Shown: positions 1 through 35,858, numbered from the stretch's first letter. The stretch is 35,858 bases of DNA from a virus (IMGVR_UViG_3300005893_000001:1-35858), one strand, 5' to 3'. Program-made: numbers and translations. Notes: a model not told the origin generated them from the letters alone.

Positions 1-80
1 CCCCCCAAACAAAAACAAGAGGCTCAAAAACCTTTATTTCAGAGACTCGCCCTCCATTTTCCATAGTGCAGAAAAAAAAA
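1..80. repeat. Direct terminal repeat, left copy (identical to 35779..35858)
   Basis: Read directly: nt 1-80 (CCCCCCAAACAAAAACAAGAGG...GTGCAGAAAAAAAAA) equal the last 80 nt of the window. Indicates a complete genome with terminal redundancy or an assembler circular overlap. Confidence 0.95.
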
Positions 81-94
81 GCTAGCGGGAAATT

Positions 95-118
95 GAGGCC
101 GAGATTACTCTCGACCTC
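95..118. other. Stem-loop in left-end noncoding region (10-bp stem, one mismatch, TTAC loop)
   Basis: GAGGCCGAGA-TTAC-TCTCGACCTC read directly. Function unknown. Confidence 0.5.
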
Positions 119-161
119 TATAGGCTTAAATTCTTTAGTTATGAGTTTAGGCTAAATAGAA

Positions 162-198
162 AAACCGATTCGAGTCGCAAGCTCATATGAATCGGTTT
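162..198 (-). terminator. Strong stem-loop; terminator-like only when read on the minus strand
   Basis: AAACCGATTC (162-171) pairs with GAATCGGTTT (189-198), with an inner GAG/CTC extension. On the minus strand it is followed by TTTTCTATTT; on the plus strand there is no T-run. No minus-strand gene lies upstream of it, so the role is unclear. Confidence 0.35.
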
Positions 199-213
199 AG
201 GGACAGTACAGTT

Positions 214-243
214 ATGTGATCCGAATATAACAATAGATCACAT
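214..243. promoter_or_regulatory. Inverted repeat ATGTGATC-N14-GATCACAT upstream of the replication-initiator gene (candidate operator)
   Basis: Perfect 8-bp arms read directly, about 50 nt upstream of the ATG at 295. Confidence 0.4.
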
Positions 244-294
244 TTTCTGTCTACCGTCTCCTGCAAGAAAAACAACTTTTGTCAAAGGAGCCGT

Positions 295-1203
295 ATGGCT
301 AACGCAACTTCACACAGCTTCAACGTAGACTTAGCAACAAAGTACGGCGTTCACGAAGCCATAATTCTTAATCATATCATGCACTGGATCGCTTTTAACG
401 AACGGGCGAAGAAGAACTTTCATGAAGGAAAGTATTGGATGTATGAAACGCTGAAGGATATGGCAAATCATTTCCCCTATTTCTCTTTTAAGCAAGTTCG
501 TACGGCTTTGGACAACCTAGTTAAGAAAGGGGCAATCATCAAAAGCAACTTCAGTAAAAATAAATTTGACGTGACTATCTGGTATGCCCTAGAGGACAAA
601 TGCATTTTACCAAATGGGCAAATCCCATTTGCCCAAATGGGCAAATGTATAAATAAGGAAACAGATACTGAAACAGATACAGAAAAGAAAAGAACAGCGA
701 AGGCGGAAGCTGGCGCTTCCGTGTCGGACGCTGCGCGCCGACTTGTTAATATTTTTATTGAAAAAATCAAAGAGCGAGACCCGAATTTCAAGGAACCCAA
801 CCTCAAGAAGTGGGCTCTCGTCTTTGACCGTATGCATCGCATAGACGGAAGAAGCTATGAAGAGATCGAAAAGCTCCTCCTCTTCTCTCAAGGCCATGAG
901 TTCTGGTCGGGCGTAATCCTAAGCCCCGAATCGTTCCGCAAAGCTACAAGCAAGCTATTTATGCAATACAACGCCGCCATTGCCAAAACTCAACCCGAAA
1001 CGCGTAAAGAGTCCAAGTGGAAAGAAAACGCAGCCTACGCCAAGGAAATGGCCTCCCTTGACGAAGACAGAATTTTCGTAGACGAAACCACTATAACCAT
1101 CGTAATCAATCGAAACAGAAAGGAAAACTGCGTTATCCCCTTCAACGAGGAAGGATTCCACGAACAGCTAGGCTCTGCTCTTAGAAAGGCTGGTATCATA
1201 TGA
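295..1203 (+). CDS. Replication initiator / replisome-organizer-like winged-helix protein
   Basis: AAGGAG just upstream of the ATG. N-terminal segment HEAIILNHIMHWIAFNERAKKNFHEGKYWMYETLKDMANHFPYFSFKQVRTALDNLVKKGAII matches the winged-helix pattern common to phage replication-initiator N-domains. A low-complexity linker carries iteron-like DNA repeats. Confidence 0.6.
   Translation: MANATSHSFNVDLATKYGVHEAIILNHIMHWIAFNERAKKNFHEGKYWMYETLKDMANHFPYFSFKQVRTALDNLVKKGAIIKSNFSKNKFDVTIWYALEDKCILPNGQIPFAQMGKCINKETDTETDTEKKRTAKAEAGASVSDAARRLVNIFIEKIKERDPNFKEPNLKKWALVFDRMHRIDGRSYEEIEKLLLFSQGHEFWSGVILSPESFRKATSKLFMQYNAAIAKTQPETRKESKWKENAAYAKEMASLDEDRIFVDETTITIVINRNRKENCVIPFNEEGFHEQLGSALRKAGII
610..680. 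repeat. Iteron-like repeat cluster inside the initiator gene (candidate ori)
   Basis: CCAAATGGGCAAAT at 610-623 and 633-646. Palindrome GGGCAAAT-CCC-ATTTGCCC at 616-634. GAAACAGATAC at 658-668 and 670-680, followed by an A-rich stretch. All lie in the linker-coding part of the gene (ETDTETDTEKK). Confidence 0.55.
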
Positions 1204-1532
1204 ACGAGAAAGCCGAATCAATCCCAATTCTCAAAGAACCTCACCCTCTCTATTACCACTTTCTAAAATTCAAAAAGAAAATTTTTGAAAATGAGCAAAT
1301 ACCTGTTTCTAAAGATTTTAACCTCTATGTCAACCCTCATCATTTGGACTTTCAAGTCAAAAAAGGCCATGGAGATGTACGCTCTTATGATGATCCTCAA
1401 TTAGCTGATCTTGTCTGGTGCTTCGTATATCTAATTAATGAATATTCTACGTATGATAACTATCATTATCATTTAATGAATGATTTTTATAAGTTTTATA
1501 AACCACAAAGAAGCACATATAAAAGATATTGA
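1200..1532 (+). CDS. Hypothetical protein (110 aa)
   Basis: ATGA start/stop overlap with the upstream gene (translational coupling). No recognisable motif. Confidence 0.55.
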   Translation: MNEKAESIPILKEPHPLYYHFLKFKKKIFENEQIPVSKDFNLYVNPHHLDFQVKKGHGDVRSYDDPQLADLVWCFVYLINEYSTYDNYHYHLMNDFYKFYKPQRSTYKRY

Positions 1533-1592
1533 CCCAAATACCACCCTCGCTTAACATCCAATTGCCAACTGAATCTAGCTGGTGTAACGTTT

Positions 1593-1617
1593 GGGGGGAC
1601 TGTATGCCCCCCTATTT
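1593..1617 (+). terminator. GC stem-loop after the replication genes (weak T tail)
   Basis: GGGGGG-ACTGTATG-CCCCCC followed by TATTT. Confidence 0.45.
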
Positions 1618-1626
1618 AGGTTCCAT

Positions 1627-1776
1627 ATGCCAATCAAAAAAGGCTCCTCTAAGAAGACAATAAGCAGCAACGTCAGCAAGCTTTCGAAAGAAGGGTACCC
1701 CCAAAAGCAAGCGATCGCAATCGCTCTCAGCTCCGCAGGTAAAAGTAAGAAAAAAAGAAGTCCAAAGAAACGTTGA
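1627..1776 (+). CDS. Small basic protein (49 aa), DUF6496-like
   Basis: From the internal ATG of ORF 1591..1776: [49 protein letters not shown]. The [11 protein letters not shown] core resembles a widespread small basic protein family (recalled from memory). Weak SD. Its 3' end overlaps the convergent XRE gene by 50 nt. Confidence 0.45.
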
Positions 1777-1963
1777 AAACGTAGGCCAGTTGCCGCCTCT
1801 CCTTATCCGTCGGAAGCTCGTCGCCACGCTCTAGACACTGATAGCGGTACATAGTCATATGCGCCCTCCTAGCAGTCTCCCTCTGCGTCAAATTCATCTG
1901 CTCTCTGAATCGCTGCAACTGCTTAGAAAAATGTGTGACTTTACGTATGTGAGGTTTCCCCAT
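1727..1963 (-). CDS. XRE/Cro-type helix-turn-helix transcriptional regulator
   Basis: [50 protein letters not shown] is a typical XRE HTH layout. Confidence 0.7.
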
Positions 1964-2264
1964 CGACTTGGGAAACTATTTTAATCGGCACAGCGTTTAA
2001 ATCAAGCTCGTCCACAAATTGAGACAAAAGGTCGAAGTCCAATGCGGGGAAATCAACCTCTCGATTTACCCAAATCGGCTCTCCCTCTATCTCCAGAGGC
2101 TTCTTGATCGCATAGTACAGCAAATTCCCCCGCCGATCCTCCTCCGTCACGCTGTAATAAAGAGCCCCATTCGGTACCGTCGCCGTAAACTCGAGAGTCC
2201 GTTTAGAATTATCATTTAACATTATCTCCATGCTATGCTTTAAGTGCTTAAGTATCATGGTCAT
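1941..2264 (-). CDS. Hypothetical protein (107 aa)
   Basis: Long ORF co-oriented with and overlapping the XRE gene start. No motif recognised. Confidence 0.5.
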   Translation of the reverse strand: MTMILKHLKHSMEIMLNDNSKRTLEFTATVPNGALYYSVTEEDRRGNLLYYAIKKPLEIEGEPIWVNREVDFPALDFDLLSQFVDELDLNAVPIKIVSQVDGETSHT

Positions 2265-2354
2265 TCATTTACCCATTAATTTCTTGAGTGTGGATTGTTC
2301 TATAAGTGTTCTATGTATTTAATTTTTTAATGGCTTTCTCTAACGATTTACCGA

Positions 2355-2600
2355 TTAAACCCCCACCAATGTTTTTGCTTGTTTTGTTGATTCAAACGTA
2401 TTGATGGTTACCCATGGCCCATACGCAATCAAAATATCTCCTTCGTCCTTAGCTTTTGTTGTGGCTAGGCGAGCATGCCCTTTGAATCGTGGATATTTAG
2501 AAATAAACTGTTTGTATGCATCATTAGCGTCTGAAAACCATGAGCTAAACACGTATTTTTCTGCTGCTGTATAGCCTGTGATTGAGAAAATTGTCTTCAT
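2355..2600 (-). CDS. Hypothetical protein (81 aa), first gene of the leftward operon
   Basis: Preceded by the conserved leader ATAACAAAAACAAGGAGAC (SD AAGGAG) also found at 28.4 kb and 19.1 kb. Confidence 0.6.
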   Translation of the reverse strand: MKTIFSITGYTAAEKYVFSSWFSDANDAYKQFISKYPRFKGHARLATTKAKDEGDILIAYGPWVTINTFESTKQAKTLVGV

Positions 2601-2659
2601 TTTAGTCTCCTTGTTTTTGTTATGGATTTAGCATAACAGAATTCGGCAATATCGCACAA
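2601..2659 (-). promoter_or_regulatory. Conserved promoter/operator/leader module, copy A
   Basis: Read on the minus strand: -35 TTGTGC (2654-2659), 18-nt spacer, TG-extended -10 TATGCT (2630-2635). Inverted repeat GTTAT-N9-ATAAC (2619-2637) spans the -10 and predicted +1. Leader is ATAACAAAAACAAGGAGAC then ATG. Confidence 0.55.
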
Positions 2660-2672
2660 CAGGAAAAAATCA

Positions 2673-2701
2673 TAGACCGTGAAAAAAAATAACATTATAT
2701 A
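2673..2701 (+). promoter_or_regulatory. Candidate rightward promoter giving a leaderless rusA mRNA
   Basis: TAGACC (2673-2678), 17 nt, TATATA (2696-2701). The ATG at 2709 is 7 nt downstream and has no SD. Confidence 0.35.
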
Positions 2702-2708
2702 TATAGAT

Positions 2709-3158
2709 ATGGTTGAAATCGTCCTACACAGGAAACCAGTTGCATTAAAACGCCCCCGTTTCGTAAGAAGGGGAATCGGCGTCGATGTAATCAATTCACA
2801 AAAGCAGCAGATGAACGCGGACTATTGGGACATTCGGGAACAATATATAGATCCCCCATTATCGGGGGCGCTAGACGTTGACCTAGAGTTTGTATTCGCC
2901 TCTAAAAAAGCAGGTCCGCGAACGGAACGCCCCGATATAGACAACCTAGTGAAATACATTCTAGACGTTGCAAATGGCCTCTTGTGGACAGATGACTCGA
3001 TCGTAGTTAAACTATCAGCAACAAAATTCAATGGTAAACACAATCAGATAACGATCAAAGTAAGGGAAATTGACCATGAGCGAAGCACCACGCCGCCCGG
3101 GACGGCCAAAGAAAGAGGAAGCCCAACCAGAAAAAAGACGAATGGGCCGCCCTCCTAA
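2709..3158 (+). CDS. rusA: RusA-family Holliday-junction resolvase
   Basis: RPDIDNLVKYILDVANGLLWTDDSIVVKLSATK matches the RusA catalytic DxDN...DD pattern. An alternative GTG start lies at 2679. The C-terminal tail overlaps the next gene. Confidence 0.8.
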   Translation: MVEIVLHRKPVALKRPRFVRRGIGVDVINSQKQQMNADYWDIREQYIDPPLSGALDVDLEFVFASKKAGPRTERPDIDNLVKYILDVANGLLWTDDSIVVKLSATKFNGKHNQITIKVREIDHERSTTPPGTAKERGSPTRKKTNGPPS

Positions 3159-3627
3159 AAATGATCCTATGTACATGAATCACAAAGAGCGGCACCAAAT
3201 GTTTGCTGACACGTCGAAGTGTTGGAAGCTCACGGAAGAATACGCGCTAGAAGTCTGTGAAAAAATGTTTCACATGATTATGACGGATGAAAGCATACTC
3301 GATATCAAAGAAATGCTCACGCGCCAGTGTCTTCCGCAATCCTCATATCTCAAGCTCAGAGAAAATTTCAAGGTGGCCTCTGATTTCCATAGTCTTGCTA
3401 AAACGATCATTGGGGCTAGGCGTGAGAAGCTTGCGCTTCACGGCAAAATTGATAGCACTATTGTAGGCAGAACGTTGCAGCATTTTGACGCGGATTATCT
3501 TGCAACCGAGATGTCAATCAAGAAGACAGCTTCCGAGCAGTCCGCCGAGTTCATCCAGCAGATGGGCGAGTTTATCCAGAAGATTCAAGCGAGCACAAAC
3601 AACAAGTTGCCCTATAAGAAAAAATGA
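3070..3627 (+). CDS. Putative terminase small subunit
   Basis: Immediately upstream of, and ATGA-coupled to, the large terminase. N-terminus has AT-hook-like basic motifs (RRPGRPKK, MGRPPK). Confidence 0.55.
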   Translation: MTMSEAPRRPGRPKKEEAQPEKRRMGRPPKNDPMYMNHKERHQMFADTSKCWKLTEEYALEVCEKMFHMIMTDESILDIKEMLTRQCLPQSSYLKLRENFKVASDFHSLAKTIIGARREKLALHGKIDSTIVGRTLQHFDADYLATEMSIKKTASEQSAEFIQQMGEFIQKIQASTNNKLPYKKK

Positions 3628-28511: not shown

Positions 28512-28925
28512 ATGGGCAGACCTAAAATTGTAAAATCTCCTTTAATGCAGCACTTGGTTGATTTAGACATAACGCTTGATAAATTCGCCAAGAAACATAA
28601 GCTGAACCCCACTACATTCAGACTCGTCTTAGGAGGCCACTACAGGCCATCTAAAGAGCTTCTTAAGCGCATTTTGGAAGCTTATGGGGGTAAGTTCACA
28701 GAGGAACAAGTCCTCAACATATTCAAGAAGCGAAGGAATAAAGACAACATCGTCAAGACCCGCGTTTCTTATTCCGATTACCTCTACCTTCAAAGCGTAG
28801 CCCTTAAAAAATCGACCGATATTTCCTCATTAGTTTATGATGCGATAAACAAAAGCTACCTACGAAAAATGAGGGAATATGACACCCCCAAGCTCACCGC
28901 GAAAAGTAACTCTAAGCGAAAATGA
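28512..28925 (+). CDS. HTH DNA-binding protein (candidate repressor/Cro-like regulator)
   Basis: MGRPKIVKSPLMQHLVDLDITLDKFAKKHKLNPTTFRLVLGGHYRPSKELLKRILEAYGG. First gene of the rightward unit at a divergent promoter region. Confidence 0.6.
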   Translation: MGRPKIVKSPLMQHLVDLDITLDKFAKKHKLNPTTFRLVLGGHYRPSKELLKRILEAYGGKFTEEQVLNIFKKRRNKDNIVKTRVSYSDYLYLQSVALKKSTDISSLVYDAINKSYLRKMREYDTPKLTAKSNSKRK

Positions 28926-29055
28926 TCTCATCTGGAAGATGTACGAAGATGGACTCTCTCCAAAAGAAATTGCAGAGAAGTTTGCCAAGAGAGAACTCAC
29001 CGAAGAGAAAATTCGCGCAATCATCGTCACAATGAAGTTTACATATATCCACTGA
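28879..29055 (+). CDS. Mini HTH protein (58 aa, sigma70-region-4/LuxR-like)
   Basis: Not in the track. MTPPSSPRKVTLSENDLIWKMYEDGLSPKEIAEKFAKRELTEEKIRAIIVTMKFTYIH. Overlaps the 3' end of the upstream gene in another frame. Confidence 0.5.
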   Translation: MTPPSSPRKVTLSENDLIWKMYEDGLSPKEIAEKFAKRELTEEKIRAIIVTMKFTYIH

Positions 29056-29376: not shown

Positions 29377-29721
29377 ATGGATAGATACGAAGAACTCAAA
29401 GAATTCTACAAAAAAGCCTCAGACCCTTTAACGTTCTTCGATTATACACCTATTCTTGTCCTGAAGTTGACGGAGTTCATTTTGGAGGAATTTTCAGAAG
29501 ATAGATTCTTCCAAGAAGAAGAAAACGAAGAGGAAGACGAACCTCACTTCGACTACTTCTTTGAGAAGTTCGAGGCAAAGCTTCCAGATCACAGCTCTAA
29601 GATTTTGCACTTTGGAGATTGTTCAGAGTGCTTTTTAAAAGGATGCAGAGAACTTGAGACGCGCTGCAAAAGATGCGGACGTCTCGTCTGCACATCAACG
29701 CAAAACAAGGAAAAAAAATGA
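29377..29721 (+). CDS. Acidic protein with C-terminal Cys cluster (114 aa)
   Basis: SD AAGGAG. QEEENEEEDEPHFDYFFEKFE, then CSECFLKGC...CKRCGRLVC (zinc-ribbon-like). Confidence 0.55.
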   Translation: MDRYEELKEFYKKASDPLTFFDYTPILVLKLTEFILEEFSEDRFFQEEENEEEDEPHFDYFFEKFEAKLPDHSSKILHFGDCSECFLKGCRELETRCKRCGRLVCTSTQNKEKK

Positions 29722-29918
29722 AACTTTTAGCACTTTTAGCCACATTAAGCCTTCTTAGCGGTTGCGCTCCATTTTCTGGATTCGCAGTAACTAGCGGCAT
29801 CTCTACAGCGAGCTATAAATCCATGGAAGCTGACAACCTTTCTGATAATGGGAAAACGTTCCTAATTATGCAGTTAGACCAGAGATACCAGGCAAAGGAA
29901 ACATCACCAAAAGAGTAA
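29718..29918 (+). CDS. Small lipoprotein (66 aa)
   Basis: ATGA coupling. MKLLALLATLSLLSGCAPF with lipobox LLSGC. Confidence 0.55.
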   Translation: MKLLALLATLSLLSGCAPFSGFAVTSGISTASYKSMEADNLSDNGKTFLIMQLDQRYQAKETSPKE

Positions 29919-29985
29919 ATGCCGTTTTGGCGCATCCGCTGGCTTTCTCGATTTAAAGTCAGCGGGTTAAACATGAGGAGAAGAA

Positions 29986-30069
29986 ATGAAAGAATATGAC
30001 AAATACGTATTATCAGTGGTCGGCGTTATCGTCGCAGTTGCGCTATATGTTTACTTTTTTGTAGTGTGA
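29986..30069 (+). CDS. Micro membrane peptide (27 aa)
   Basis: SD GAGGAG then MKEYDKYVLSVVGVIVAVALYVYFFVV. Confidence 0.35.
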   Translation: MKEYDKYVLSVVGVIVAVALYVYFFVV

Positions 30070-30323
30070 GGAATATGCAACCTGTAAATCGTAGCTATCC
30101 TACAGCGCACTACGAATTGTATGGAGACCTTATGAAAGGTCTTCCTATGAAAGCATGTAGTGAAAAATATACTCTTTCGGAAGCTCAGATAGTAAGTATT
30201 TTTTATAACGTCACTAGAGAGTCGAAGGGGCTTCCTCCTCTCGATCCCAGTCCCCGTATTGTTCGGCCAATGAGCGGAAGAGTTTTTGCAATGGAGTTAC
30301 CTGATGATGATCCCCCCAACTGA
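30066..30323 (+). CDS. Small HTH-like protein
   Basis: KGLPMKACSEKYTLSEAQIVSIFYNV. The alternative start is the ATG at 30075. Confidence 0.5.
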   Translation: MRNMQPVNRSYPTAHYELYGDLMKGLPMKACSEKYTLSEAQIVSIFYNVTRESKGLPPLDPSPRIVRPMSGRVFAMELPDDDPPN

Positions 30324-30510
30324 AGTTGAATGGCGCATTCATCGTGAAGTTTGTGAAAATCATCCAGTTTACCTCATAGCAAAAAACTACTCTCTCACTC
30401 AGGAAAAAGTTATCGAAATTTATTGCAAATGTCTTTCTTGGAGAGAGTCTGAAGAAGGCGAACTCGTCCGAAACTACTCAAACAACCGCCGTAGATACCG
30501 CAGGCATTGA
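30304..30510 (+). CDS. Small HTH-like protein (paralogous motif)
   Basis: GGAG 7 nt upstream of the ATG at 30304. HPVYLIAKNYSLTQEKVIEIYCKC parallels the previous gene. Confidence 0.5.
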   Translation: MMIPPTEVEWRIHREVCENHPVYLIAKNYSLTQEKVIEIYCKCLSWRESEEGELVRNYSNNRRRYRRH

Positions 30511-30770
30511 TGAAAATCTCAAAAAGCTATTTCTTATCATCCGACCATGTCGGAGATAGTCCCCGATCATGTAGATATCGATCATTCGAAGTTTGCTTCA
30601 AAGTCCTTAGATCATCCGATTTAGATTTAGAACTCACATGTGTAGCAAAAGCGTCTAATCTTTCGTTATCGGAAACCCTGAAAATCGCCTCCTTCCTAAG
30701 AAAATGGACGCGCTTCGAAAGCATTCGCAAAGACTACTTCTACAAACTTGAGAACATCCTAAGGCAGTAA
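30507..30770 (+). CDS. Small HTH-like protein (87 aa)
   Basis: ATGA coupling. VAKASNLSLSETLKIASFLRKW. Confidence 0.45.
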   Translation: MMKISKSYFLSSDHVGDSPRSCRYRSFEVCFKVLRSSDLDLELTCVAKASNLSLSETLKIASFLRKWTRFESIRKDYFYKLENILRQ

Positions 30771-30962
30771 TTTGGACATATTTCGGACATTTGGCCATTT
30801 ATTGTCCGATAAGCTGCCAAAAGTGGCCGTATTCCGACGTTTTGGCGGAATATGCTGGATAATACGACGGATTTGGCTGAGTTGTCAGGAAAAACTGGAC
30901 AACTCAAAATCCAGATACTCGCTGAGGGCGAGCAACTGTTCGGTTTTTCCGTACAGTTCAAA
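30771..30962 (+). ncRNA. Structured noncoding tail (possible 3'UTR-derived RNA)
   Basis: Successive hairpins: TCGGACA-N13-TGTCCGA (30783-30809), TATTCCG-N9-CGGAATA (30830-30852), GTTGTC..GACAAC, CTGGA..TCCAG, CTCGC..GCGAG. Seven GGA triplets, plus an eighth in the terminator loop at 30975. The overlapping ORFs (30772..31020 plus strand, 30740..30967 minus strand) have implausible C/W/R-rich composition. Confidence 0.3.
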
Positions 30963-31001
30963 GCCAACTAGTAAGGATGACTTACCAGTTGGCCGTTTCT
31001 T
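30963..31001 (+). terminator. Intrinsic terminator between convergent units
   Basis: GCCAACTAGTAAG-GATGA-CTTACCAGTTGGC (12 bp, one mismatch) followed by CGTTTCTT. Confidence 0.65.
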
Positions 31002-31308
31002 AGAGAAGAACCGTTATTAGTAGTGATCCAGCGACCTTTAAAATTTTAATTGTTGCCGCTGGTAAAAGTTCCGTTAACAATTTTTTAATGATCTTCGCCG
31101 AAAGCCGAGAGACTTTGAAGAAGAATGCATTTTGTCGATCGAGCAGAGCCCTTGAGACTTTGCTAACCACGAGCTCCGTTTTAGATTGAGAGCCCTCTTT
31201 AACGGCTGCTACGACTTTTTGTGCAACCTCTGCGTGCCTTACGACTTCCTCGTGAGGCAAGTTCCCATAAATGGAAACATAGTTATTGTTTGTTATGTTT
31301 GGGGTCAT
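31000..31308 (-). CDS. Hypothetical protein (102 aa) with hydrophobic C-terminus
   Basis: Start chosen at the ATG preceded by TAAGGAGG: MTPNITNNNYVSIYGNLPHEEVVRHAEVAQK...AATIKILKVAGSLLITVLL. Confidence 0.55.
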   Translation of the reverse strand: MTPNITNNNYVSIYGNLPHEEVVRHAEVAQKVVAAVKEGSQSKTELVVSKVSRALLDRQNAFFFKVSRLSAKIIKKLLTELLPAATIKILKVAGSLLITVLL

Positions 31309-31318
31309 CGCGACCTCC

Positions 31319-31342
31319 TTACAGAGCGGTTGTACTCTGTAA
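31319..31342 (-). promoter_or_regulatory. Perfect inverted repeat abutting the SD of the 31308 gene
   Basis: TTACAGAG-N8-CTCTGTAA. On the mRNA the 3' arm is directly followed by GGAGG. Either an operator or a translation-controlling hairpin. Confidence 0.4.
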
Positions 31343-31375
31343 TAATATTTTACCAATTAAATGAATTTCTCGTAA

Positions 31376-31404
31376 TTGATTTAATTCCAGATGCTTGAGA
31401 TACT
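31376..31404 (+). promoter_or_regulatory. Candidate promoter for repeat element R1
   Basis: TTGATT (31376-31381), 17 nt, TGA-GATACT (extended -10, 31399-31404). The predicted start at about 31411 coincides with the first repeat. Confidence 0.35.
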
Positions 31405-31410
31405 TATTGG

Positions 31411-31593
31411 CGCAATGCCCAGCGATGCTGTTCCAACCTATGCGATGCCTAGCTATCCTGTGCGATGCCTAGCCAAGCAATGCGCACCTTAGCATAGCTT
31501 ACCAATGCATATCGGTGCAGACCAATGCAATTCAATGGAGCCGGACAATCGGAACCGGACATAGCCCCTTCAGAAATGAGGGGGCATTTTTTT
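31411..31593 (+). ncRNA. R1: repeat-rich noncoding element ending in an intrinsic terminator (candidate sRNA or protein-binding array)
   Basis: (G/C)C(G/A)ATGC motifs start at 31412, 31422, 31442, 31462, 31477, 31502 and 31522. TGCGATGCCTAGC occurs twice (31441, 31461). ACCAATGCA occurs twice (31501, 31521). There are four GGA in GGAGCCGGACAATCGGAACCGGAC. Terminator is GCCCCT...AGGGGC plus T7 (31564-31593). No plausible ORF. Confidence 0.45.
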
Positions 31594-31594
31594 G

Positions 31595-31623
31595 TTGGCA
31601 TAAATATCCTAACGTTATATCAT
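31595..31623 (+). promoter_or_regulatory. Candidate promoter of the four-gene cassette
   Basis: TTGGCA (31595-31600), 17 nt, TATCAT (31618-31623). The context AACGTTAT(AT)CAT resembles the promoter at 35728-35756. Confidence 0.4.
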
Positions 31624-31658
31624 TGTCCGCAGTCCTTAACAAATAAGGGCAAAGGAAG

Positions 31659-32291
31659 ATGAAAATGAATAACTTAAAGAAATACAAAATCACCATTGAA
31701 GGCGTAACGCCTATAATCATGCACAACTCTGATGCTGCTTCCCCCTTCTCAAAATACATGGAAGAGAGGAAGTCAATCACATCGAAGGGGTCAAAGAAAA
31801 GCGATGAGCAGGTAAAGCGCCTGAGCGAGATCCAGTTTCTAGAGAGCCTCTATTTCACCGAAGAGCTTGGGCTTTTTTTACCTAGCGAAAACATCCAGCG
31901 CATGCTTTTAGAAGCTTGCAGGCGCACAGAAAAGCTTCGAGAAAGCCGTATGTATTTCTCTGGAATCTCTGAAATTGGCCATCCACTTGGCTTCTCCTTG
32001 AAGACAGAAAATTGCAAAGATATTCAGGCGCTTTTGAAAGATCCAAAGAATAAGTATACAAAAATGGTCGTCATTCAAAAAAACCGTGTCTCATCAGTAA
32101 GAGCAATTTTCAATATGTGGGAATGCATGATTGAAGTTGAGATCGACACTGAAACTTTAAACCCGGCACAACTTGAAAAATGGTTTTGCACAGCGGGAAA
32201 GTTTTGCGGTCTAGGAGCAAGAAGGCCAAGCGGGCCAACTCCCGGACTTTATGGCCGTTTTATAGTAACAAATTTTAAAGAGGTGAACTAA
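31659..32291 (+). CDS. Unknown 210-aa protein, first gene of the cassette
   Basis: SD AAGGAAG; the start is the ATG at 31659 or 31665. KYKITIEGVTPIIMHNSD ... LFLPSENIQRMLLEACRR ... GKFCGLGARRPSGPTPGLYGRFIV. No family recognised with confidence. Confidence 0.6.
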   Translation: MKMNNLKKYKITIEGVTPIIMHNSDAASPFSKYMEERKSITSKGSKKSDEQVKRLSEIQFLESLYFTEELGLFLPSENIQRMLLEACRRTEKLRESRMYFSGISEIGHPLGFSLKTENCKDIQALLKDPKNKYTKMVVIQKNRVSSVRAIFNMWECMIEVEIDTETLNPAQLEKWFCTAGKFCGLGARRPSGPTPGLYGRFIVTNFKEVN

Positions 32292-32770
32292 TGATTATGC
32301 TTGAAGATTTCGAAGAAATTTCTATTGAGCCTCGTCCAGATAACGATGAGCTATCCAAGAGGCAAACTCTTTTGGCAAGGATGAAAGAAGCACGATGCCT
32401 TGATTATGGCATTACTTTAGAAGAATCTTTGCTCGAAGACCTGCTCGACATGAAAAAATCGGAAGTTAGCGAAACAGAGTGGAACTTAGCTTTGCTTCAG
32501 ATTTACGGTGCTCTTCTGAATGCGGGATTTTTCTCCACGAGAAGGGGAAAAAAAGGAGCACTTTATATTCATGAAGTTGAGGAAATGCCCCATGTTTCTT
32601 CCGAGAAAAACAGAAGCTCTTTGCAGAAGCTTAAACTTCGGCAGCGCGCACTTTTCAGAGCGCCTTACGATACAAATGAAGAGCTGCAAAAGATTTTCGA
32701 ATTTGAAACGAACAGGAATGCTAAAATCATGTTGCATGATTCTGTACTGTTGAAGGAGCGTTTGAGGTAA
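32291..32770 (+). CDS. Unknown 159-aa helical protein
   Basis: TAATG coupling and SD GAGGTG. No motif recognised. Confidence 0.6.
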   Translation: MIMLEDFEEISIEPRPDNDELSKRQTLLARMKEARCLDYGITLEESLLEDLLDMKKSEVSETEWNLALLQIYGALLNAGFFSTRRGKKGALYIHEVEEMPHVSSEKNRSSLQKLKLRQRALFRAPYDTNEELQKIFEFETNRNAKIMLHDSVLLKERLR

Positions 32771-32985
32771 TGGACTGGTATCAAATTGCTGCTCTATGCA
32801 TTTCTGGATTAGGATCAATTGTAGCTGTCCTTATTTGGTCTTGGTCAGAGAACAGAAATGTCGAAAGACATAGACAAACAGAATTGATGGCTATATTGGG
32901 AATCGTTGACTCGATTCGCCAAGATGTAAAAGATTTTCATGGACGCTTATGCTCACTAGAAGAGCGTCGTAAAGGAGAAAAATAA
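32770..32985 (+). CDS. Single-pass membrane protein (71 aa), paralogue 1
   Basis: MDWYQIAALCISGLGSIVAVLIWSW... then DSIRQDVKDFHGRLCSLEERRK. Confidence 0.6.
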   Translation: MDWYQIAALCISGLGSIVAVLIWSWSENRNVERHRQTELMAILGIVDSIRQDVKDFHGRLCSLEERRKGEK

Positions 32986-33164
32986 TGGACTGGATACAAG
33001 TACTCACAATCATAATCTCAAACTTCGTACTTTTTCTTTGGGCACGATCTGAATCTAGGGAAGATACTAGAATGATACTAGGAATGGTTGATGCCATTCA
33101 AAAAGAAATTAAAGACTTCCATGGCAGGCTATGTGCTATTGAAGAAAGGAATAAAAAATCATAG
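32985..33164 (+). CDS. Single-pass membrane protein (59 aa), paralogue 2
   Basis: Not in the track. TAATG overlap. MDWIQVLTIIISNFVLFLWARSESREDTRMILGMVDAIQKEIKDFHGRLCAIEERNKKS, clearly homologous to the previous gene. Confidence 0.55.
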   Translation: MDWIQVLTIIISNFVLFLWARSESREDTRMILGMVDAIQKEIKDFHGRLCAIEERNKKS

Positions 33165-33300
33165 CATAGCAGTGCGATGCGAAGCGTTGCGATGCTTAGC
33201 GATGCAGTGCGTACCTGAGCAGAGCTGAGCAAATCTTGCCAAATCTTAGGAGCCGGAAAATAGTGGCCGGACGCCCCTCTTCGGAGGGGCATAATTTTTT
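33165..33300 (+). repeat. R2: second copy of the repeat-rich element with its terminator (3'UTR of the cassette)
   Basis: GCGATGC at 33174, 33189 and 33199. TGCGTACCTGAGCAGAGCT (33208-33226) matches R1's TGCGCACCTTAGCATAGCT at 16 of 19 positions. CAAATCTT occurs twice (33230, 33240). GGAGCCGGAAAATAGTGGCCGGAC is present. Terminator is GCCCCTC-TTCG-GAGGGGC plus T6 (33273-33300). Confidence 0.55.
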
Positions 33301-33409
33301 ACTTAAACATCTTTTTCAGCATCTGAAAATAAGCGCCGAGAGCTAAGAAAATAACTATTGCTAAAGAAAGAGTAGGCCCAATCCAGTACACTAAAAAATC
33401 TTCAATCAT
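33299..33409 (-). CDS. Micro membrane protein (36 aa)
   Basis: SD AGGAGA. MIEDFLVYWIGPTLSLAIVIFLALGAYFQMLKKMFK. Confidence 0.4.
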   Translation of the reverse strand: MIEDFLVYWIGPTLSLAIVIFLALGAYFQMLKKMFK

Positions 33410-33569
33410 CCTTTTCTCCTTTCTTAGCATTCGAAATGAAATAGTCGCACTTCCATTCTTTAGGAGCGAACGATGCGTAGCTTTGCGAATACTCGTCTGC
33501 CTTAGCCGTCCAACGATAGCAGTTCTCTTTGAGAGGACATTGTGTGTTAATACACTTGGTGATATCCAA
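33402..33569 (-). CDS. Small Cys-rich protein (55 aa, TTG start)
   Basis: GGAG 6 nt upstream of the TTG. DITKCINTQCPLKENCYRWTAKADEYSQSYASFAPKEWKCDYF follows a C..C...C.R...C pattern seen in small phage proteins. Confidence 0.4.
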   Translation of the reverse strand: MDITKCINTQCPLKENCYRWTAKADEYSQSYASFAPKEWKCDYFISNAKKGEKDD

Positions 33570-33572
33570 ATC

Positions 33573-33671
33573 TCACTCCATCGTTTTTGCGAGTTGAGAA
33601 AAATATATGTAAGCTAAAGCAATGACGAACAGTCCCCATAAAAGCTCAGTACCTATGAATTCTTGAATCAT
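33573..33671 (-). CDS. Micro membrane protein (32 aa)
   Basis: MIQEFIGTELLWGLFVIALAYIYFSQLAKTME. Weak SD. Confidence 0.3.
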   Translation of the reverse strand: MIQEFIGTELLWGLFVIALAYIYFSQLAKTME

Positions 33672-33684
33672 CTCCAAATCCTAT

Positions 33685-33927
33685 TCAAATTTCACCTTGC
33701 ATGATTCGGTATAAGTATTTATTAGCTTCCTTTTCACTTTCAAAACCGTCTTCAATTACAATGCGTCCATATTCTTCTAATAAACCGAAGTGACATACAA
33801 TCTCATATCGTAAATTTCTATCCTGAGTGTCTTCAATCATTGCACTAACAGCAATGATTTCAACAATACTCATGGAATACCAATCACCATTAACATCTTT
33901 GATAAATCCGTTTCTAATCATTTCCAA
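33685..33927 (-). CDS. Hypothetical early protein (80 aa)
   Basis: ORF in the tightly packed leftward operon. Confidence 0.55.
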   Translation of the reverse strand: MEMIRNGFIKDVNGDWYSMSIVEIIAVSAMIEDTQDRNLRYEIVCHFGLLEEYGRIVIEDGFESEKEANKYLYRIMQGEI

Positions 33928-34142
33928 ATCCTATCCAAATCGACTTCCTCTCGAATCAACCTTCGGATCTCCTCGCAGAACGCCGCGTGCTTATCATCAG
34001 GCTCTTCATACTTCAGCTTGCTTCTGCAAAGCTGATCGATCTCAAAGAGCAGCCCTGCCATATCGCGCGCGTGAAGCGCCAGTAGCGCATCTTGCTCGTC
34101 AAAATAGCGGAATGCAAACTCGGGGTGGCGCTCTTCAGTCAT
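33918..34142 (-). CDS. Hypothetical early protein (74 aa)
   Basis: ORF in the leftward operon. Overlapping start/stop with its neighbours. Confidence 0.55.
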   Translation of the reverse strand: MTEERHPEFAFRYFDEQDALLALHARDMAGLLFEIDQLCRSKLKYEEPDDKHAAFCEEIRRLIREEVDLDRIWK

Positions 34143-34410
34143 TTTTCTTCTCCGGGAATGCTGGAAATCTCATCCAGTAAATAATCTCTTCTTCGACTAA
34201 TCCACAGCAGTAACGGCAAAACCAAAAGCCTTTAGGTTTTTTGGTGTAAAAAGCTTCGCCATTCTCCTTAAGGAATTTCGACTCGTTAGAATATCGAGCG
34301 ACACTTATCTCTTGATCTTTGTTTATAACGATAACCCACTCGAAGTTTTCGGGTAGCGCCTCTGAGGCTTTCACCCATTCTCCGAAATTAGTCATCTTCT
34401 CGTGCCTCAA
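34135..34410 (-). CDS. DUF551-like protein
   Basis: EWVKASEALPENFEWVIVINK...IIYWMRFPAFP. The likely start is the ATG at 34395. Confidence 0.55.
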   Translation of the reverse strand: MRHEKMTNFGEWVKASEALPENFEWVIVINKDQEISVARYSNESKFLKENGEAFYTKKPKGFWFCRYCCGLVEEEIIYWMRFPAFPEKKND

Positions 34411-34618
34411 TATTCGACCAGTATTTGATATCCTCAGTCTTCAGCATCGTAAAGAATCCATAGACTCTAGCACCCTCCGGATTGAATCCCAGCTCCACAA
34501 TCCAAGGCATAGGATGGTCGGGGAAGTAGCTACAAACGAAGTGGTTGCCTACCTTGTCTTCAGCAATAACCTCTTGTGCCCATCTTGGCAGCTCTTGTTC
34601 AGGTGTTTGCCAGTGCAT
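34388..34618 (-). CDS. Small protein, weakly DUF551-like (76 aa)
   Basis: MHWQTPEQELPRWAQEVIAED...IKYWSNIE. Confidence 0.5.
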   Translation of the reverse strand: MHWQTPEQELPRWAQEVIAEDKVGNHFVCSYFPDHPMPWIVELGFNPEGARVYGFFTMLKTEDIKYWSNIEAREDD

Positions 34619-34801
34619 TTAAGTCTCCTTTTTAACTTTTACTGTTGCCCATAGATACATGAGAATCATGCCCTTGCATAGCTCTCCAGTAAGCCATATC
34701 GTCAAAATGTATGGATTGCCTGCGTAAGCGATTAGCGCTGTCTGAACAATGACAAACAGCAGGAAAGCGAAAACGCCGTAGAAATCAATGGTGATTCTCA
34801 T
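34619..34801 (-). CDS. Two-TM small membrane protein (60 aa)
   Basis: FYGVFAFLLFVIVQTALIAYAG...GMILMYLWATV. Confidence 0.5.
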   Translation of the reverse strand: MRITIDFYGVFAFLLFVIVQTALIAYAGNPYILTIWLTGELCKGMILMYLWATVKVKKET

Positions 34802-35190
34802 GACTCCTCTCCAGACTCTGCTTTCTCCCTCTCTTCCGAAGATTCAGAAGGGCTCATCTCATCAACAGGCGTAGGGTTTAAGCTTGTGCCCCTTTCCTCC
34901 GGCGATAGATCGGCAAGAGGAGAAACGCTCTTGTAGTTCGGCATCTGTGACACGTCGCGCTCTTCTAGGCCAGCATTCAATCTGGTCACATCGTTGATTT
35001 GATGGATGAAAGTTTGCCCCGAATCACGCACTCGGACGGCAGTTAGCCAATAAATTTGCATGTTAGGACTGGCACCCGGTCGAAGATCGAGCATGCGATA
35101 GCCATTTCGGCCGAAAACCTGTGTCAATATAGGCAGCTCGCTCAAATAGACTCGCGATGAAAAAATGTCGATTTCTGGTTGTGGGTACAT
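34798..35190 (-). CDS. Hypothetical early protein (130 aa), acidic tail
   Basis: GRNGYRMLDLRPGASPNMQIYWLTAVRV core is shared with the next gene. C-terminus is SPSESSEEREKAESGEES. Confidence 0.55.
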   Translation of the reverse strand: MYPQPEIDIFSSRVYLSELPILTQVFGRNGYRMLDLRPGASPNMQIYWLTAVRVRDSGQTFIHQINDVTRLNAGLEERDVSQMPNYKSVSPLADLSPEERGTSLNPTPVDEMSPSESSEEREKAESGEES

Positions 35191-35198
35191 TGTCTCCT

Positions 35199-35495
35199 CT
35201 AAGTGGTTTTGTAGTATTCGTAGCTTTTAACTGGATTGACATACGGGCCGAACGTCTCCCGCATGCGCATATTCTTCTTCTCTTCCTCTTCTAGTCGCTG
35301 CAGGAAATTCTCGATCTTTGCGGCGGTAATCCAGAACTTTTGAGGAGGATTTTCCCACGAGGCAGCCTGCACGCTGATGACGCGGTAGCCGAGCTGACCT
35401 ATCGCAACCGTCATCCTCTCTAGATCGCATTCTCCCACCAGAGCGTGATGAACGTAAACAGCAGGAGGCTTATCGTGCATCGTCGGGGCGCCCAT
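35199..35495 (-). CDS. Hypothetical early protein (98 aa), paralogous core
   Basis: GQLGYRVISVQAASWENPPQKFWITAAKI. Confidence 0.55.
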   Translation of the reverse strand: MGAPTMHDKPPAVYVHHALVGECDLERMTVAIGQLGYRVISVQAASWENPPQKFWITAAKIENFLQRLEEEEKKNMRMRETFGPYVNPVKSYEYYKTT

Positions 35496-35721
35496 ATACT
35501 CTCCTCATCGTTTTAACGTGCTTCTTCAAGGAGGTGATGAATCCCTCTATTTCCTCATCGCTGCTGTCTTGCTCCACGAGAAGATGCGCCGAATGTAAGC
35601 ATAGTGCGTTAAGAATGACGTCAATACGTCGCTCTCTGAACATCTCGCTCATCGTATCGTATAATTGTGAAAAGTCTTCTAAAATGAAGTCAGGTAGATC
35701 GCTTATATTTTTCTCGCCCAT
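35470..35721 (-). CDS. Hypothetical first early protein (83 aa), apparently leaderless
   Basis: The ATG lies 6 nt downstream of a good -10 hexamer and has no SD. Confidence 0.55.
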   Translation of the reverse strand: MGEKNISDLPDFILEDFSQLYDTMSEMFRERRIDVILNALCLHSAHLLVEQDSSDEEIEGFITSLKKHVKTMRRVYGRPDDAR

Positions 35722-35727
35722 TTCTGA

Positions 35728-35756
35728 ATGATAACGTTACGAGAAAATTTCCGCAA
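35728..35756 (-). promoter_or_regulatory. Candidate leftward early promoter
   Basis: Minus strand: TTGCGG (35751-35756), 17 nt, TATCAT (35728-35733), then TCAGAA and the ATG. Confidence 0.5.
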
Positions 35757-35782
35757 GAAAAAGGGGAAGCGTTTAGCTCCCC
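35757..35782 (-). terminator. Minus-strand intrinsic terminator just upstream of the early promoter, reaching into the terminal repeat
   Basis: Minus strand reads GGGGAGC-TAAAC-GCTTCCCC followed by TTTTTCTT. Confidence 0.45.
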
Positions 35783-35858
35783 CCAAACAAAAACAAGAGG
35801 CTCAAAAACCTTTATTTCAGAGACTCGCCCTCCATTTTCCATAGTGCAGAAAAAAAAA
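35779..35858. repeat. Direct terminal repeat, right copy (identical to 1..80)
   Basis: Read directly. Confidence 0.95.

Follow-up and report, generated by a model that had tools for sequence, protein, structure and literature searches.

The closest described counterpart of the locus analysed here is VIPR (Viral Interference Programmable Repeat), a phage-borne, CRISPR-like and RNA-guided DNA silencer first described in 2026 (bioRxiv 10.64898/2026.04.26.720920, 10.64898/2026.04.26.720927). Its type II exemplars come from Escherichia phage SUSP1 and a Pseudomonas fulva prophage (bioRxiv 10.64898/2026.04.26.720920), and structures are available under PDB 36pp (10.64898/2026.04.26.720927). The published vrRNA has 9-16 YNNGG pentamers and then a conserved tail, and the Vipr protein, a RAMP, coats it with one protomer per unit to form a helical filament in which GGY is buried and the NN bases are exposed (bioRxiv 10.64898/2026.04.26.720920,.720927). 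The NN pairs read one strand of double-stranded DNA with every third base skipped, mostly at codon wobble positions, and transcription is silenced; the natural targets are rival phages, satellites and prophages, no self-targets were found at an 80% threshold, and disturbed NN pairing abolishes silencing (bioRxiv 10.64898/2026.04.26.720920,.720927). Within the locus, which is usually viral, vrRNAs lie on either side of vipr, which is usually followed by an accessory gene (vap1-6); the system has been proposed as an ancestor of the CRISPR RAMP effectors (bioRxiv 10.64898/2026.04.26.720920,.720927). The published biochemistry concerns GGY systems, while the alternative repeats NNNGG, YNNNG and NNNNG are named in the methods, YNNNG there only (bioRxiv 10.64898/2026.04.26.720920,.720927).

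The window, by which we mean the whole 35,858-nt stretch of viral DNA that was analysed (IMGVR_UViG_3300005893_000001), is a tailed-phage genome; its genes include those for terminase, portal and the major head protein as well as RecE/RecT-like genes. An ENA contig of 35,919 nt (L049) is 100% identical to it and circularly permuted, with an overlap of about 80 nt (window 1-2864 and 29418-35858), and the window is therefore a complete genome, circularly assembled or terminally redundant. Two arrays, R1 and R2, are paralogues with the same tail and bracket four plus-strand ORFs in the order vrRNA, vipr, possible vap, two small membrane proteins, vrRNA (Table 1). R1 sits between divergent genes, with early genes as neighbours, and ends 65 nt upstream of vipr; R2, which is without a promoter of its own, closes the operon.

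The two arrays are very probably the vrRNA genes of a VIPR locus with W-G-C as its constant triplet, and the locus would serve as a weapon against related phages. The product of 31659-32291 is a homologue of SUSP1 Vipr with the RAMP fold and is flanked by the arrays, so that the locus is identified as a VIPR system. With the SUSP1 and P. fulva systems it shares the homologous Vipr, a vrRNA made of pentamers (three positions constant, two variable) and ending in a conserved 3' tail, the placement of vrRNAs in the intergenic DNA on both sides of vipr, a small gene after vipr, a viral (phage) genome as its carrier, and a code with a 1-nt skip that leads to codon-aligned matches in related mobile elements. 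As a description of the kind has existed since 2026, R1 is not categorically new; the locus is a compact and complete example of the little-documented YNNNG (W-G-C) class.

Table 1. Features of the locus and partial guide matches within the same genome (window coordinates).
Feature	Position	Strand	Description
Candidate R1 promoter	31376..31404	+	TTGATT-17-TG-n-GATACT; 8/12; inferred start about 2 nt before the first unit
R1 repeat tract	31413..31537	+	25 pentamers C-N-N-W-G; last 3-4 units pre-tail
R1 guide segment A, units 1-15	31413..31487	+	25/30 match to L043
R1 guide segment B, units 13-22	31473..31522	+	20/20 match to L043
R1 3' tail	31538..31594	+	GAGCCGGA-N-AAT..CCGGAC, terminator hairpin 31564-31585, U-run
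Promoter-like site for the vipr operon	31595..31623	+	TTGGCA-17-TATCAT, 10/12, consensus match only; directly after R1 terminator
vipr, 210-aa RAMP, homologue of SUSP1 Vipr	31659..32291	+	protein and profile matches
Candidate vap, 159 aa	32291..32770	+	by position only; start overlaps vipr stop (ATGA)
Two paralogous small proteins, 71 aa and 59 aa	32770-32985, 32985-33164	+	N-terminal membrane helix; from translations
R2 repeat tract	33160..33249	+	18 pentamers; begins on stop codon of the 59-aa ORF
R2 3' tail	33250..33300	+	GAGCCGGAAAAT..CCGGAC, terminator hairpin 33273-33290, U-run
Partial match to R1 segment B in own genome	31106..31140	-	15/20, own allele, gene 31000-31311 (-)
Partial match to R1 segment A in own genome	30096..30139	+	20/30, in ORF 30066-30323
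Near-match to R2 guide in own genome	33919..33959	-	24/28, 3' end of ORF 33918-34142 (LIREEVDLDRIWK*)

The repeat tract of R1 is an unbroken run of in-register C-N-N-W-G pentamers (CAATG CCCAG CGATG ... CAATG), which in another phase read as a constant W-G-C triplet alternating with two variable bases, and R2 is built in the same way. Over the 43 units of both arrays, position 1 is always C (43/43), position 4 is A or T in 42 units and position 5 is G in 31, with positions 2 and 3 nearly unconstrained (0.10 and 0.28 bit). Period-5 Fourier power of C has its maximum across the 35.9-kb window at R1 and its second peak at R2, and a scan of both strands of the window for at least five consecutive C-N-N-W-G units found none outside the two arrays. 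Judged from these units, C-N-N-W-G is the YNNNG repeat class of the published account.

This register had escaped the sequence-only reading, as had the division into constant and variable positions and the 3' tail common to both arrays. That reading had picked out an array of the heptamer SCRATGC, and all seven of its copies are present in R1 (starts at 31412, 31422, 31442, 31462, 31477, 31502 and 31522), as are three in R2 (33174, 33189 and 33199). Its proposal that the motif is enriched here also holds, with 26 copies in the window against 17.4 +/- 3.5 expected (0/100 shuffles reach 26), 10 of them within R1 and R2; GCGATGC is clustered as it had described, three times in 47 nt of R1 and three times in 32 nt of R2, which together account for 6 of the window's 11 copies. 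The spacings between starts (10, 20, 20, 15, 25 and 20 nt), most of which it had read as helical turns, have 5 rather than 10 as their common factor; the heptamers are only the units that stand out most in a continuous 5-nt register.

That helical phasing had led to one of the two interpretations offered for R1, a protein-binding site on double-stranded DNA, be it an iteron, a partition centromere or a regulator's operator array, without functional transcription. Close direct repeats, several of them spaced by 10 or 20 bp, and the divergent intergenic position beside early genes are what such a site would have. A 5-bp period, however, is half a turn and puts successive units on opposite faces of the helix. 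The signal is confined to one strand: reverse-complement units and minus-strand runs are both absent. A conserved hairpin tail and a terminator, both also present in R2, close the array, and no neighbouring gene matches a Rep or Par family. The same type of array moreover co-occurs with Vipr homologues across phyla, in unrelated phages, and its variable positions spell genes of related phages when read by the code of an RNA guide. We therefore regard a DNA site as scarcely credible. The other interpretation, a small RNA gene with direct repeats, was essentially right in outline, since R1 reads as a vrRNA gene adjoining a Vipr homologue.

Several elements of that small RNA gene were recovered. 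The expectation that the repeats would stay single-stranded agrees with the fold of the R1 tract, which has no significant structure (z = -1.57), and the strong terminator was found again by a terminator scan as the hairpin at 31564-31585 with its T-run. The TG-extended promoter is present as sequence, with just 8/12 consensus positions matched, and for this reason it falls under the threshold of the promoter scan and is missing from its listing. The R1 tail contains a further CCGG/CCGG hairpin at 31541-31558 and folds with z = -3.65. A 3' module of the form GGAGCCGGA.AAT..G...CCGGAC, followed by a GC-rich hairpin and a U-run, is common to R1 and R2, a comparison of two copies from one phage. 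Compared with the published VIPR tail, the tail here is predicted as two simple hairpins, of which the second is the terminator. The last 3-4 units of the tracts are semi-conserved in the R1/R2 alignment and absent from the guide matches described below, and were for both reasons counted as pre-tail; in R2 this leaves units 1-14 (33160-33229) as the guide and units 15-18 as pre-tail.

Rfam returned nothing for the whole window at gathering thresholds and, with E-value thresholds, one chance sRNA match on 31300-33400 (E 0.21); distant blastn of the locus against GenBank phages gave no match, and the shared tail motif had 0 matches in IMG/VR. The cassette proteins have no significant match in Pfam, PADLOC or NCBIfam, a word-indexed protein search with the vipr product found the product itself only, and a search for related loci from the single 210-aa protein gave no relatives. 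Binding to a TRAP-like ring, a type III toxin-antitoxin system and a Cas6-like processing nuclease had been considered and were dropped when homology to Vipr was found.

That homology is seen at several levels. The 210-aa product matches phrog_4652, a family of unknown function (E 1.5e-32), and as a single sequence it matches PDB 36pp_D, SUSP1 Vipr, in phmmer (E 4.8e-15, residues 8-191). A profile of 62 family members finds one match among solved structures, 36pp 'SUSP1 Vipr protein' (E 9.6e-61), and the family extends to 1557 representatives at E <= 1e-3, the closest being P0002 (40% identity), on a 1.4-kb contig without an array in view. The AF2 model (pLDDT 95.1, pTM 0.89) has the RRM core, glycine-rich loop and thumb of the RAMP fold, and all its top Foldseek matches in the PDB are Csm3/Cas7 proteins (probability 1.0, E 2e-5); the thumb arginine R148 is invariant across the family. 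The earlier suggestion that the cassette proteins may bind the repeats is thus, for the first of them, plausible by analogy, as it is a homologue of a RAMP known to polymerise on such repeats.

The residues that would read the constant triplet were compared by mapping the single-sequence alignment with 36pp onto the published residue contacts. The residues with which SUSP1 Vipr reads G2 and Y3 have identical counterparts here (R138->R148, E71->E77, R179->R189, H17->H22), and the one that hydrogen-bonds G1 is lost (D177->A187), with W178->R188 beside it. This combination fits a W-G-C triplet in place of G-G-Y, which together with the change in the G-loop (GLGARRPSGPTPGLYGRF; GARRP here against GDWRP in SUSP1) sets the locus apart from the published systems. 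The difference between the two loops suggests which residue sets the first constant base.

As a predicted structure, the protein also resembles the Cas7/Csm3 backbone of class 1 CRISPR systems, its best structural neighbours, which share the RRM core, the G-rich loop and the thumb, and in which each protomer likewise covers a set length of RNA, with the duplex of guide and target interrupted by thumbs. Unlike those systems, the locus has no CRISPR array, no cas1/cas2 and no processing repeat for Cas6, and its guide is noncontiguous, with 2 guide bases in 5 nt instead of 5 in 6 nt.

The same protein evidence bears on a further reading, in which R1 would be a repeat RNA that sequesters a protein, either as a type III antitoxin like ToxI or as a sponge of the TRAP/CsrA type, without guiding to DNA. 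In toxIN, a promoter, direct RNA repeats and a terminator precede the protein gene, and R1 and vipr follow this order. In the trp leader RNA of Bacillus, 11 (G/U)AG triplets separated by 2-3-nt spacers are bound by TRAP with one subunit per unit, and the period of about 5 nt, the constrained triplet with a free 2-nt spacer and the oligomeric protein recall the arrays here, as an analogy only. ToxIN repeats are about 36 nt long (about 34-45 nt in ToxIN-like loci) and are cut by the toxin, a ToxN/AbiQ endoribonuclease, whereas the units here have 5 nt and the downstream protein is a Vipr-homologous RAMP without a PADLOC match. TRAP has an unrelated fold and its spacers carry no information, whereas the 2-nt 'spacers' of R1 and R2 would be the guide. 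Matches to foreign genes that are codon-aligned and specific to the register, as described below, would be needless for a sponge. Sequestration is accordingly judged highly improbable, and the arrays are treated in what follows as vrRNA guides.

Period-5 arrays adjoin Vipr homologues in Pseudomonas, Vibrio and Mycobacterium phages as well as in metagenomic loci. Pseudomonas phage LESphi2 (L002) has NNGGC units and the G-loop GLCDYRP; Mycobacterium prophage prophiBWHA-1 (L004) has units of the GGY type and GDWRP; Listonella phiHSIC and a Vibrio phage (L001, L003) have NN-GCA units with the 5' handle GGGGTAAAACTCAA and GDFRP; and two metagenomic loci have NNTGC units with GVWRP (L009) and NNTGA units with GVWTP (L007). 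By these sequences, the constant triplet varies among Vipr clades. An aspartate in the G-loop corresponds to G as the first constant base in the 7 loci or clades inspected, a small sample with registers assigned by eye, and this suggests, as a lead from few cases, that the aspartate sets G at position 1 of the triplet. On the showing of the present case, a small RAMP-like gene with a tract of strict 5-nt periodicity next to it is a reliable signature of VIPR.

Some details of these loci may be recorded here. Each NN-GCA array of L001 (3620-3900) and L003 (2840-3000 and 3650-3830) is preceded by the handle, and hairpins separate the arrays. The NN-TGA units and the GVWTP loop are found in L008 as well as in L007. 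Upstream of the Vipr homologue of L004, a piece resembling a tRNA T-arm and acceptor (GGGTTCGATTCCTGGAACCGCACGACCA) lies at 2880-2930 between two tracts of the GGY type; it may be a tRNA-like processing element, and ARAGORN calls no tRNA there.

The guides were read by taking positions 2-3 of each unit as the NN pair with a 1-nt skip in the DNA (NNx), and targets were approached from the best partial matches in the window through homologues of the matched genes to the contigs that carry them. Against the window, the full arrays reach at best 31/50 (R1) and 25/36 (R2), and the best partial matches of both are codon-aligned within real ORFs beside the locus. One 5-kb contig, L043, holds the best target of all three guide segments. 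Units 13-22 of R1 match L043 2215-2243 (QNAFIFKIGR, in gene 2035-2346) at 20/20, compared with 15/20 for the phage's own allele; units 1-15 match 3347-3390 in a minus-strand ORF (YPDWHYTLYSDLQKG) at 25/30, compared with 20/30; and units 1-14 of R2 match 915-955 (LIREDVDLDRIWR*) at 25/28, compared with 24/28. Units 1-14 of R2 also match L048 at 25/28, a contig whose assembly, ERZ27237459, also contains a contig of this phage. All guide matches in L043 and L048 are codon-aligned, and none of 1000 guide shuffles reaches the L043 scores; with a skip of 0, 2 or 3, or with any other pair of unit positions, scores are 8-10 compared with 20. The 20/20 rival allele is known from L043 only, a single contig.

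Direct searches with exact windows in IMG/VR, JGI metagenomes and GTDB genomes returned matches at chance level only. The 9-NN windows had 25, 2, 1 and 1 matches in IMG/VR, none extending past the forced window, and the 25 fall into three unrelated families, about what chance would give. Among these candidates, 21 contigs of one family (within L011-L035) match R1 units 1-9 exactly; the match ends at unit 9 and lies outside ORFs, and it was rejected as chance multiplied by family size. The 10-NN windows had 2 matches in JGI metagenomes, in unrelated ORFs and without extension past the window, and 0 and 0 in GTDB genomes.

L043 retains synteny with the window to either side of the locus, with two unrelated genes at the VIPR position itself. 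This variable position, L043 1335-2035 against window 31311-33435, holds a 131-aa protein and a DUF551 protein in L043, and unrelated genes in L044 also. The guides fit genes of related phages without VIPR and are mismatched to the phage's own alleles, which argues for a weapon against co-infecting or resident relatives. Three predicted natural targets in a syntenic VIPR-less relative, with own alleles a few bases apart, would offer a handle on self/rival discrimination and on the tolerance of mismatches.

The closeness of the own alleles allows for another function, in which R1 and R2 are genuine vrRNAs that act mainly on the phage itself, as a developmental switch by which R2, and R1 more weakly, would silence the three own sites of Table 1. 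The R2 guide matches its own gene, a 74-aa gene with homologues in other contigs, at 24/28 (86%), a score reached by 0/1000 guide shuffles, and the three best matches in the window lie codon-aligned in genes beside the locus. In this respect the locus differs from the published VIPR sets, since R2 units 1-14 exceed the threshold of at least 80% NN identity above which those sets have no self-target; that property is reported for them and is not a defining feature of the system. The L043 allele is, however, the better match for all three guides, and the mismatches to the own alleles are synonymous or conservative, as between alleles. For R2 the four are single-base differences, CGA vs AGx (Arg), ATT vs GTx, AAA vs AGx and TTG vs ATx, and as these codons read they are the pattern of synonymous or conservative changes expected of allelic variation. 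The lack of self-targets in the published sets and the loss of silencing on NN disruption also speak against a self-acting switch (bioRxiv 10.64898/2026.04.26.720920,.720927), which we consider improbable as the main function.

For a weapon against relatives, the following course of events can be proposed. R1 would be transcribed from its weak TG-extended promoter and halted by its own tail and terminator, while the promoter at 31595-31623 would serve vipr and the three genes after it (the vap candidate and the two small ones). R2, being without a promoter, would need processing from the operon transcript, and could be released from its 3' end under the protection of Vipr. The 210-aa Vipr would then assemble with one protomer per 5-nt unit, burying W-G-C and exposing the two variable bases, and the conserved 3' tail and terminator would cap and end the RNA. 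The concatenated NN bases would pair with one DNA strand, skipping every third base, to form a gapped R-loop that blocks transcription. With two overlapping guide segments on R1 and one on R2, the guides would read, in alignment with the codons, genes that flank the VIPR position in close relatives lacking the locus. In a shared host, L043-like relatives could in this way have genes of their early region silenced by the phage, whose own alleles would escape by a few mismatches.

R1 is unusual in its 25 units, compared with 9-16 in the published arrays, and in what appear to be two overlapping guides, which may belong to one RNA or to a staggered pair. A tentative and rather doubtful extension of this is that R1 is a single two-guide vrRNA, its segments sharing units 11-15, with which one Vipr filament would address or bridge two rival genes, and that the 86% self-match of R2 in addition tunes the phage's own transcription, the few mismatches marking the boundary between self and rival. 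An architecture with two guides has not been described for VIPR (bioRxiv 10.64898/2026.04.26.720920,.720927).

The remaining genes of the cassette also depart from the published loci, with a vap candidate that has no detectable relatives and two extra membrane-protein genes. The 159-aa vap candidate has no match in Pfam, PADLOC, NCBIfam or PHROG, its homologues in a word-indexed protein search are those of its own phage only, the genes that follow vipr in L002 and L007 show no similarity to it, and its AF2 single-sequence model (pLDDT 42.7) is unusable. The 71-aa and 59-aa tandem paralogues share a C-terminal motif, KDFHGRLC..EER, and have a weak match to phrog_1863 only. In a JGI contig (L050, from 3300026008) that is otherwise 99.98% identical to this phage, a 1-nt indel splits the vap candidate into ORFs of 113 aa and 42 aa (1633-2111), and the cause could be either a mistake in the assembly or genuine loss of the accessory gene.

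R1 and R2 are identical in all variants of the phage except one. This variant, an ENA contig (L051, from ERZ27237462) of 99.5% identity, lacks exactly two units of R2 (10 nt, CTTGC CAAAT), a deletion in the tail-proximal part that preserves the 5-nt register.

Several small plus-strand ORFs (28879-29055, 30066-30323 and 30286-30510) have an HTH-like motif in common (..LS..EIAEKF.., ..LSEAQIVSIFY.. and ..LTQEKVIEIY..), with weak matches only to HTH families of Pfam. The second of them, ORF 30066-30323, is the phage's own allele of the target of R1 segment A.
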